This document shows, piece after piece, positions 33,888-33,958 of a stretch of DNA of 64,000 nucleotides. Positions within the stretch are counted from its first letter, which is position 1. Every line of letters starts with the position of its first letter. Source of the stretch: a virus (Duplodnaviria > Caudoviricetes); IMG/VR virus record IMGVR_UViG_3300032038_000052, positions 1 through 64,000 of that record. One strand, written 5' to 3'. The notes below the pieces were generated by a model. It had not been told where the DNA came from. It saw only the letters and a list, made by a program, of their open reading frames with translations, and made no database searches. The position numbers and the translations under genes are program-made.

Positions 33888-33958
33888 TGGGGTGTGGTGT
33901 AATGGAAGCACAGGAGGCCCTAACCCTCTTGATCTCAGTTCGACCCTGAGCGCCCCCG
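33888..33958 (+). tRNA. amber suppressor tRNA(CUA), Gln-type
   Basis: Full cloverleaf: TGGGGTG/CGCCCCC acceptor (U1:C72 mismatch, G73), GGAGG-CC-CTA-AC-CCTCT anticodon arm (CTA at 33920-33922), CTCAG-TTCGACC-CTGAG T-arm. Confidence 0.92.

Follow-up and report, generated by a model that had tools for sequence, protein, structure and literature searches.

Position 33 of tRNA is regarded as an almost invariant uridine on which the anticodon U-turn depends. Cited exceptions are the C33 of eukaryotic initiator tRNAs and the G33 of the tRNA-Ser(CAG) of Candida (PMC11122139, PMC5041475). A literature search found no description of C33 (or U33C) in a phage or suppressor tRNA, nor of a bacterial or phage elongator with it. 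The window analysed here, a stretch of 64,000 nucleotides of viral DNA, encodes a tRNA with the anticodon CUA and a C at position 33. Can such a tRNA serve the phage that carries it, and what does the unusual base do? Our reading is that it is probably a working amber suppressor of an SPbeta-like phage of rumen Lachnospiraceae in which TAG is recoded to glutamine, with C33 tolerated; we infer expression, charging, efficiency and any selective value of C33 from the sequence.

ARAGORN calls two tRNAs in the whole window, tRNA-Pro(UGG) at 14191-14263 and a tRNA with a cta anticodon at 33887-33959. The second matches the Rfam tRNA model (RF00005) at 33888-33958 with 43.3 bits over the full model (1-71), where the gathering score is 29. 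The two programs thus bear out the amber-reading tRNA with a cloverleaf and CUA anticodon that was described in the initial annotation. The gene, a putative glutamine-type amber suppressor referred to as tRNA(CUA) below, occupies 33888..33958 on the + strand and is identical in three related loci (L098, L099, and L100). Its anticodon, which reads UAG, lies at 33920..33922 (+) in both the ARAGORN call and the Rfam alignment. Position 33, U in nearly all tRNAs, corresponds to nucleotide 33919 (+); it is C in the Rfam alignment, in contigs of four sequencing runs, and in a diverged copy of the gene (L097).

Read from the sequence, the acceptor stem consists of U1.C72, G2:C71, G3:C70, G4:C69, G5:C68, U6.G67, and G7:C66, followed by the discriminator G73. 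The pair 1:72 (U.C) is marked as non-standard in the Rfam alignment, and no CCA is encoded at the 3' end of 33888-33958. GGAGG/CCUCU forms the anticodon stem, to which an A26:U44 pair is added. G10 is present, and both the D-loop (G18G19) and the T-loop are canonical. The anticodon loop has seven nucleotides, C32 C33 C34 U35 A36 A37 C38. Aligned to the Rfam consensus C U n n n A A, the loop (C C C U A A C) has a C opposite the U33 of the model. The length of the loop, the purine A37, and the Watson-Crick closing pair G31:C39 are those of a canonical elongator loop; the U33 of the U-turn is replaced by the C at 33919. The Gln-like determinants listed earlier for this gene (an unpaired 1:72, G73, and a stem with G2 and G3) and the loop CC-CUA-AC are therefore confirmed by the sequence and the Rfam alignment. 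The minimum free energy fold of the bare sequence is not the cloverleaf (z = -1.24), which is common for tRNAs and is given no weight. ARAGORN labels the gene tRNA-Pyl because it names any cta anticodon Pyl. This identity was rejected, since the TAG sites of the phage align with glutamine and neither the GG of the D-loop nor the T-loop departs from the canonical form.

The record is a single linear IMG/VR virus contig of 78,612 nt, estimated to be 46% complete, and belongs to an SPbeta-like phage from the bovine gut. PHROG and Pfam searches, here or in relatives, pick out the terminase, the portal, and head and tail proteins of SPbeta type (YonB, YomW, YomU, YonD, and YonG). When TAG is read as sense, the + strand, fragmented from ~17.6 kb onward, becomes a continuous module. 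This TAG-recoded morphogenesis module covers 17651..64000 (+) of the window and extends to ~78148 of the 78612-nt record, and its genes all end with TAA or TGA (30/30 of the late genes listed). ORFs of 5359, 3024, and 1506 aa appear only in this reading. The 30 late genes have ~221 in-frame TAGs compared with 335 CAA and 228 CAG codons, which makes TAG 28% of all glutamine codons. By codon counts, 107 in-frame TAGs are found in the 5359-aa ORF (36988..53067, +). In relatives, a 7550-aa product that carries a PhageMin_Tail domain occupies the corresponding position.

The meaning of TAG can be read from relatives. The homologous genes are free of in-frame TAG in ENA scaffold_422 (124,943 nt; loci L102 and L106), so the phage of this scaffold uses the standard code. 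Where TAG sites of the window are aligned to this scaffold, CAG or CAA is found at 19 of 33 sites, and the next commonest residue is Glu with four. For example, the large terminase TerL (19562..21481, +, identified by PHROG) has nine in-frame TAGs; its protein is 90% identical to the scaffold_422 homologue, and codon alignment places a glutamine codon (CAG or CAA) at eight of the nine sites. In a second standard-code homologue (L104), CAG or CAA is found at five of the nine TerL sites. Comparison with L098, a recoded relative that is 91% identical, gives the same exchange: TAG is replaced by CAG or CAA, or the reverse, in 8 of 11 changes. Because the aligned TAG sites are mostly CAG or CAA in standard-code relatives, these alignments indicate that TAG means glutamine in this phage. 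The scaffold_422 phage (XIEF21; L102, L106) is 90% identical to the window in the TerL and major capsid proteins and only ~76-80% identical in DNA, and the two form a close standard/recoded pair for the study of how recoding originates.

The early region, where the tRNA-Pro(UGG) gene lies (14191-14263, +), has other structured RNAs. A ROOL RNA is found just upstream of this gene (13499-14087, +; Rfam 307 bits) and a Pistol ribozyme at 7481-7549 (-; Rfam 72 bits). In addition, a 72-nt segment at 6417-6488 (-) matches positions 2135-2206 of bacterial 23S rRNA (Rfam 50.7 bits).

A tRNA that is to supply glutamine at TAG has to be charged with it. tRNA(CUA) is 81% identical to the annotated tRNA-Gln of the crAss-like phage cr60_1, and its D arm and anticodon arm, with the exception of position 33, are common to 93 IMG/VR CUA tRNAs. 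Its acceptor resembles that of a phage tRNA-Gln(UUG) in L078. By sequence, the GlnRS identity elements are present (unpaired 1:72, G2:C71, G3:C70, G10, G73, U35, and A37), so the body appears to be of glutamine type. The host family is likely Lachnospiraceae: TerL relatives are found in two Lachnospiraceae metagenome-assembled genomes (MAGs), in one of them inside a 378-kb contig, and the closest cellular homologues of the phage NifS are Lachnospiraceae NifS proteins. The initial annotation regarded charging as a puzzle because many Firmicutes lack GlnRS. This concern does not hold here, as both of the MAGs carry a full GlnRS (717 and 686 bits; cut-off 426). Since the host family encodes GlnRS, direct glutaminylation by the host enzyme would be the simple expectation.

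The tRNA-Gln genes of the MAGs have U1:A72, G2, G3, G73, A37, and C38, with the loops UU-CUG-AC and CU-UUG-AC. The loop of tRNA(CUA) differs from these host loops at position 33, and U33 is found in 31/31 tRNAs examined of a host-family MAG. Note that the C32/C38 opposition pointed out earlier is present but is not unusual, because the host tRNA-Gln(UUG) has it as well. A recent copy of a host tRNA gene was considered as the source of tRNA(CUA) and rejected, because searches of the two Lachnospiraceae MAGs gave only chance matches of 14-17 nt outside tRNAs. The initial annotation had also remarked that no aminoacyl-tRNA synthetase or release factor gene is visible. None is seen in the whole contig either, and none of 20 early ORFs has a translation-related Pfam match; in a contig that is 46% complete, however, this absence says little about the phage.

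Upstream of tRNA(CUA) there are two TAG-free genes. The first encodes a NifS-type cysteine desulfurase of 378 aa (32453..33589, +; Pfam Aminotran_5, E 8e-78; NCBIfam FeS_nifS, 455 bits, below the cut-off of 531). The second, orf85 (33586..33843, +), is a conserved partner ORF that overlaps the NifS stop and has neither an invariant cysteine nor a family match. A GC-rich hairpin with a T-tract, found by a terminator scan, follows at 33858..33887 (+) and abuts the 5' end of the tRNA. The layout hairpin, T-tract, tRNA is repeated in L097, L101, and L109-L112. We propose that tRNA(CUA) is probably transcribed with, or just after, the NifS-orf85 unit and would be matured by host RNase P and the CCA-adding enzyme; the hairpin could also lend stability to the mRNA upstream once RNase P has cut. 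Host GlnRS would then charge the tRNA with glutamine through unpaired 1:72, G2:C71, G3:C70, G10, G73, U35, A37, and C38, and the charged tRNA would read the ~221 in-frame UAG codons of the late genes. C33 would be tolerated by the translation system. The terminator-like element directly upstream counts against this explanation. So does the lack of a convincing promoter, as a scan gave fewer promoter-like sites than shuffled sequence.

How unusual is C33 among tRNAs of this kind? It is found in 0/93 of the IMG/VR CUA tRNAs with the same anticodon stem. A broader Gln-type pattern, in which the stem is left free, gives two more C33 CUA tRNAs in IMG/VR (L158 and L163), and the U33 control of this pattern has at least 108 matches. 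Another case is found in Acinetobacter phage ZZ1 (NC_018087.3), where the CUA tRNA has the loop CC-CUA-AA and the other seven tRNAs have U33. The nearest neighbour of every one of these C33 CUA tRNAs is a U33 tRNA, which implies that C33 arose at least four times in phage CUA tRNAs: in the clade of the window, L158, L163, and ZZ1. L158 looks recoded, to judge solely by the length of a 951-aa ORF with nine TAGs; a PHROG search with this ORF gave no match. The 234.9-kb complete record behind L163 (G003) uses the standard code, with long ORFs free of TAG, and the C33 tRNA is its sole CUA tRNA. The G003 phage also has a tRNA-like gene with a two-base anticodon according to ARAGORN (L239 1501-1572; G003:C1:160995-161066). 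In ZZ1, a 77-aa 'RF-1 domain peptide chain release factor' is annotated at 72162-72392 of NC_018087.3, ~4 kb from the C33 CUA tRNA.

C33 is not confined to CUA anticodons. In a small and non-random sample, 5 of 215 distinct non-CUA phage tRNAs in the fetched loci have it. Their identities are Lys(UUU), Glu(UUC), Glu(CUC), Met(CAU), and Asn(GUU), all with C32, and they are located in L078 (c6830-6905), L166 (c5637-5713 and c6598-6673), L172 (c6986-7061), and L209 (6516-6591). The idea that C33 is always accompanied by C32 was dropped: C32 is found in 10/10 C33 cases but also in 79% of U33 tRNAs (Fisher p = 0.22). C33 may have been selected repeatedly in phage tRNAs, above all in those that read UAG. 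As a swap of a single pyrimidine, it would leave the loop fully competent for high-throughput decoding and alter its recognition by a loop-binding protein (an anticodon nuclease, GlnRS, or a modification enzyme). We put this forward tentatively.

The nuclease version of this idea can be considered by itself. C33 could have been selected because it shields the tRNA from a nuclease that cuts anticodon loops and is encoded by the host or by a rival element, for example one aimed at Gln-type loops. The difference between the phage tRNAs with non-CUA anticodons (5/215 with C33) and the tRNAs of the host-family MAG (0/31) is in its favour, although this enrichment comes from the same limited sample; the four or more origins among CUA tRNAs are too. 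Several of the anticodons with C33 listed above are known nuclease targets, and this is also counted for protection. Furthermore, loop changes that make phage tRNAs resistant to anticodon nucleases have been proposed (PMC10264068). However, a nuclease of this type is hypothetical for this phage, and the host has no tRNA(CUA) that such an enzyme would have evolved to cut. In the one nuclease with data, the gamma-toxin of K. lactis, cleavage is unaffected by U33C (PMC2275089). On balance we regard protection from a nuclease as rather unlikely to be the reason for C33.

C33 could instead tune the function of the tRNA, either by slowing UAG decoding so that late-protein synthesis is timed or limited, or by reshaping the loop so that GlnRS better accepts an anticodon with A36. 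PMC3664417, citing Santos 1996 and Hayase 1992, states that mutation of U33 degrades translational efficiency, with lowered decoding in yeast tRNA-Gln, and that U33 may be a GlnRS determinant. The tRNA-Ser(CAG) of Candida, which reads a reassigned codon, has G33 (PMC5041475). The distribution of TAG in the phage also fits. TAG makes up 1/14 of the glutamine codons in the major capsid protein gene (25464-26594) and 2/24 in the portal gene (21490-23004), compared with 28% overall; in some minor tail genes it makes up 50-73%. The sparing of TAG in the capsid and portal genes, whose products are the most abundant proteins, hints at a somewhat costly codon. Against tuning, the ~221 in-frame TAGs, and above all the 107 in one ORF, require near-complete read-through: for a 10% yield of the full-length protein, simple arithmetic gives ~98% read-through per codon (roughly 98-99%). 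In addition, a C33 CUA tRNA is found in the standard-code record G003, implying that C33 is not specific to recoding. The suggestion of the initial annotation that the loop is tuned for reduced efficiency is thus at odds with the TAG load. This load makes it unlikely that the suppressor is weak by design, except where RF1 has been neutralised or another suppressor shares the work. As the contig is 46% complete, the part of the genome that it lacks could encode such a second, canonical suppressor. Tuning seems to us quite improbable. There is a real tension between the published data on position 33 and an ORF with 107 TAGs. For the suppressor with a tolerated C33 that we favour, the substitution is probably not a brake on suppression.

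The surroundings of tRNA(CUA) change from genome to genome. In the window, an HNH homing-endonuclease cassette follows at 33981..34957 (+). It consists of a leader and a 295-aa ORF (34070-34957) with four in-frame TAGs, matches Pfam DUF4379 and HNH_2 and a PHROG HNH endonuclease, and is absent from L098 and L099. Compared with these two loci, the cassette (33981-34957) is a precise insertion 22 nt past the tRNA. Its left junction, CATAAGG|AGTAATTA, is common to the unrelated HNH cassettes of L097, L109, and L111. In more distant relatives, the slot after NifS-orf85 has different CUA tRNAs, all with U33. In L112 (5441-5533) the CUA tRNA is intron-less and has a long variable arm. CUA tRNAs with a long variable arm, class-II-like putative suppressors as in L112, are split after C34-U35 by a group I intron in L101 (11160-11470; intron Rfam RF00028, 41 bits), L109 (5436-5745), and L110 (1510-1814). 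In L111 (5175-5250) there is an odd tRNA-like gene that is missed by ARAGORN, and then another HNH gene. These comparisons mark the slot as a hotspot for tRNA replacement and selfish elements.

Such traffic could itself have produced C33, either by making the tRNA gene immune to a homing endonuclease or intron aimed at it, or as a marker co-converted with the HNH cassette. The hotspot, the HNH cassettes 3' of the tRNA in both the window and L097, and the introns and other HNH genes in the slot of relatives are consistent with this. Nevertheless, the identical C33 tRNA is found with the cassette (window) and without it (L098, L099, and L100), which disfavours an immunity change, and the ZZ1 record annotates no homing endonuclease beside its C33 tRNA. 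A by-product of mobile elements is therefore a very unlikely origin of C33.

The NifS-type gene is TAG-free and lies 300 nt upstream of the tRNA, and from the adjacent IscS the initial annotation suggested that the loop may need modification. In this case C33 or C32 would be modified or edited with sulfur from NifS, restoring U-like function. However, the NifS-orf85 pair is also found in the standard-code relative L102 without an adjoining tRNA, so NifS is not tied to the suppressor and its proximity cannot be taken as a sign of modification. Moreover, orf85 lacks an invariant cysteine, and searches of the contig revealed no gene for a thiolase, a deaminase, or another tRNA-modifying enzyme. 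We give sulfur modification hardly any chance.

The base itself can be followed in other assemblies. The stretch with tRNA(CUA) is found in bovine gut metagenomes, and contigs of four runs were aligned on 33300-34500; as these are contigs and not raw reads, minor variants are possible. Over the compared stretch, the window is matched without a difference by the Logan contig from the run that is its probable source. Contigs of three other studies have ~97% identity over 33300-33993, with 20 differences of which none is within the tRNA, and all have C at 33919. A further short contig in run X2 has a more diverged tRNA that matches L097 and, by depth arithmetic, also has C33. In all, at least six further assemblies or studies have contigs with the identical tRNA, among them L098, L099, and L100. 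These three loci and L097 come from four further public assemblies and were located by pattern scans and protein look-ups. No match was obtained in IMG/VR with the T-arm and acceptor sequence of tRNA(CUA), a NifS-based search for related loci in IMG/VR gave no relative, and the C33 tRNA pattern has 0 matches in the genome contig collection.

The diverged copies tell how the gene evolves. Of the 11 differences that set the tRNA of L097 apart, some form two T-stem pairs in which both partners have changed in full compensation; U1.C72, G73, and the complete anticodon arm are as in the window. In L099, all 71 nt of the tRNA agree with the window, although identity is 92.6% for orf85 and 76.8% for NifS; at the rate of orf85, 0 changes in 71 nt would occur with P ~0.004. 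Because the gene is unchanged in L099 beside diverged orf85 and NifS, and compensated in L097, the comparison indicates that it is under purifying selection. C33 is older than the split of the two tRNA variants (window type and L097 type). On this evidence it is a fixed, heritable substitution of this tRNA clade, neither an error nor a sign of decay, and the contigs of other studies together with L097-L100 uphold the C at position 33 that was first read from the window. An assembly or sequencing error, or a decaying pseudogene, for which only the rarity of C33 speaks, has virtually no probability left given the same base in many assemblies, the compensated stem changes in L097, and the 0/71 nt changed beside diverged flanks.

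In this phage, a C33 tRNA appears to carry the whole load of a reassigned codon, 28% of the glutamine codons of the late genes and 107 in one protein. If it works as proposed, it would give a natural lower bound on the importance of U33 in elongation, and it would be a ready-made variant for engineering amber suppressors. If C33 is in addition a recurrently selected design, the phage would show, in nature, that efficient elongation at hundreds of codons can do without U33. The tRNA is also a concrete test case for the idea that phages escape tRNA-targeting defences by anticodon-loop changes. Finally, tRNA finders give it the label 'Pyl', and both it and the recoded genes could easily receive wrong names from annotation pipelines.

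tRNA(CUA) belongs to a known kind, the code-15 phage suppressors, and has an undescribed loop variant that is real, inherited, and recurrent. Like the suppressor tRNA(CUA) of code-15 gut phages (Borges et al., 10.1101/2021.08.26.457843; Peters et al., PMC9523058), it is phage-encoded with a CUA anticodon and a glutamine-type body. Both serve TAG-rich late or structural genes in a standard-code host and, as we infer for the window, would use host GlnRS. They differ in that the gut-phage suppressors have U33, whereas the tRNA of the window has C33 and U.C at 1:72; also, those phages are crAss-like or Lak, whereas this SPbeta-like phage has its likely host among the Lachnospiraceae. ZZ1t008 of Acinetobacter phage ZZ1, annotated as a 'possible suppressor tRNA', has the same C32, C33, and CUA anticodon, but its tRNA body is unrelated and its phage is T4-like with a proteobacterial host.

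The E. coli suppressor supE (glnV) is similar in being a Gln tRNA with CUA that GlnRS charges via a weak 1:72, G2:C71, G3:C70, G73, and U35. It differs in its origin, a point mutation in a cellular tRNA, and in having U33 and partial efficiency, whereas the tRNA of the window is a dedicated phage gene with C33 that would serve hundreds of codons. The eukaryotic initiator tRNAs with C33 and the Candida tRNA-Ser(CAG) with G33 (PMC5041475, PMC11122139) share with tRNA(CUA) that they are rare natural tRNAs without U33. The initiators, however, are eukaryotic and act in the P site. The Candida tRNA reads a reassigned codon, as tRNA(CUA) is proposed to do, but it is eukaryotic and has G33, not C33.
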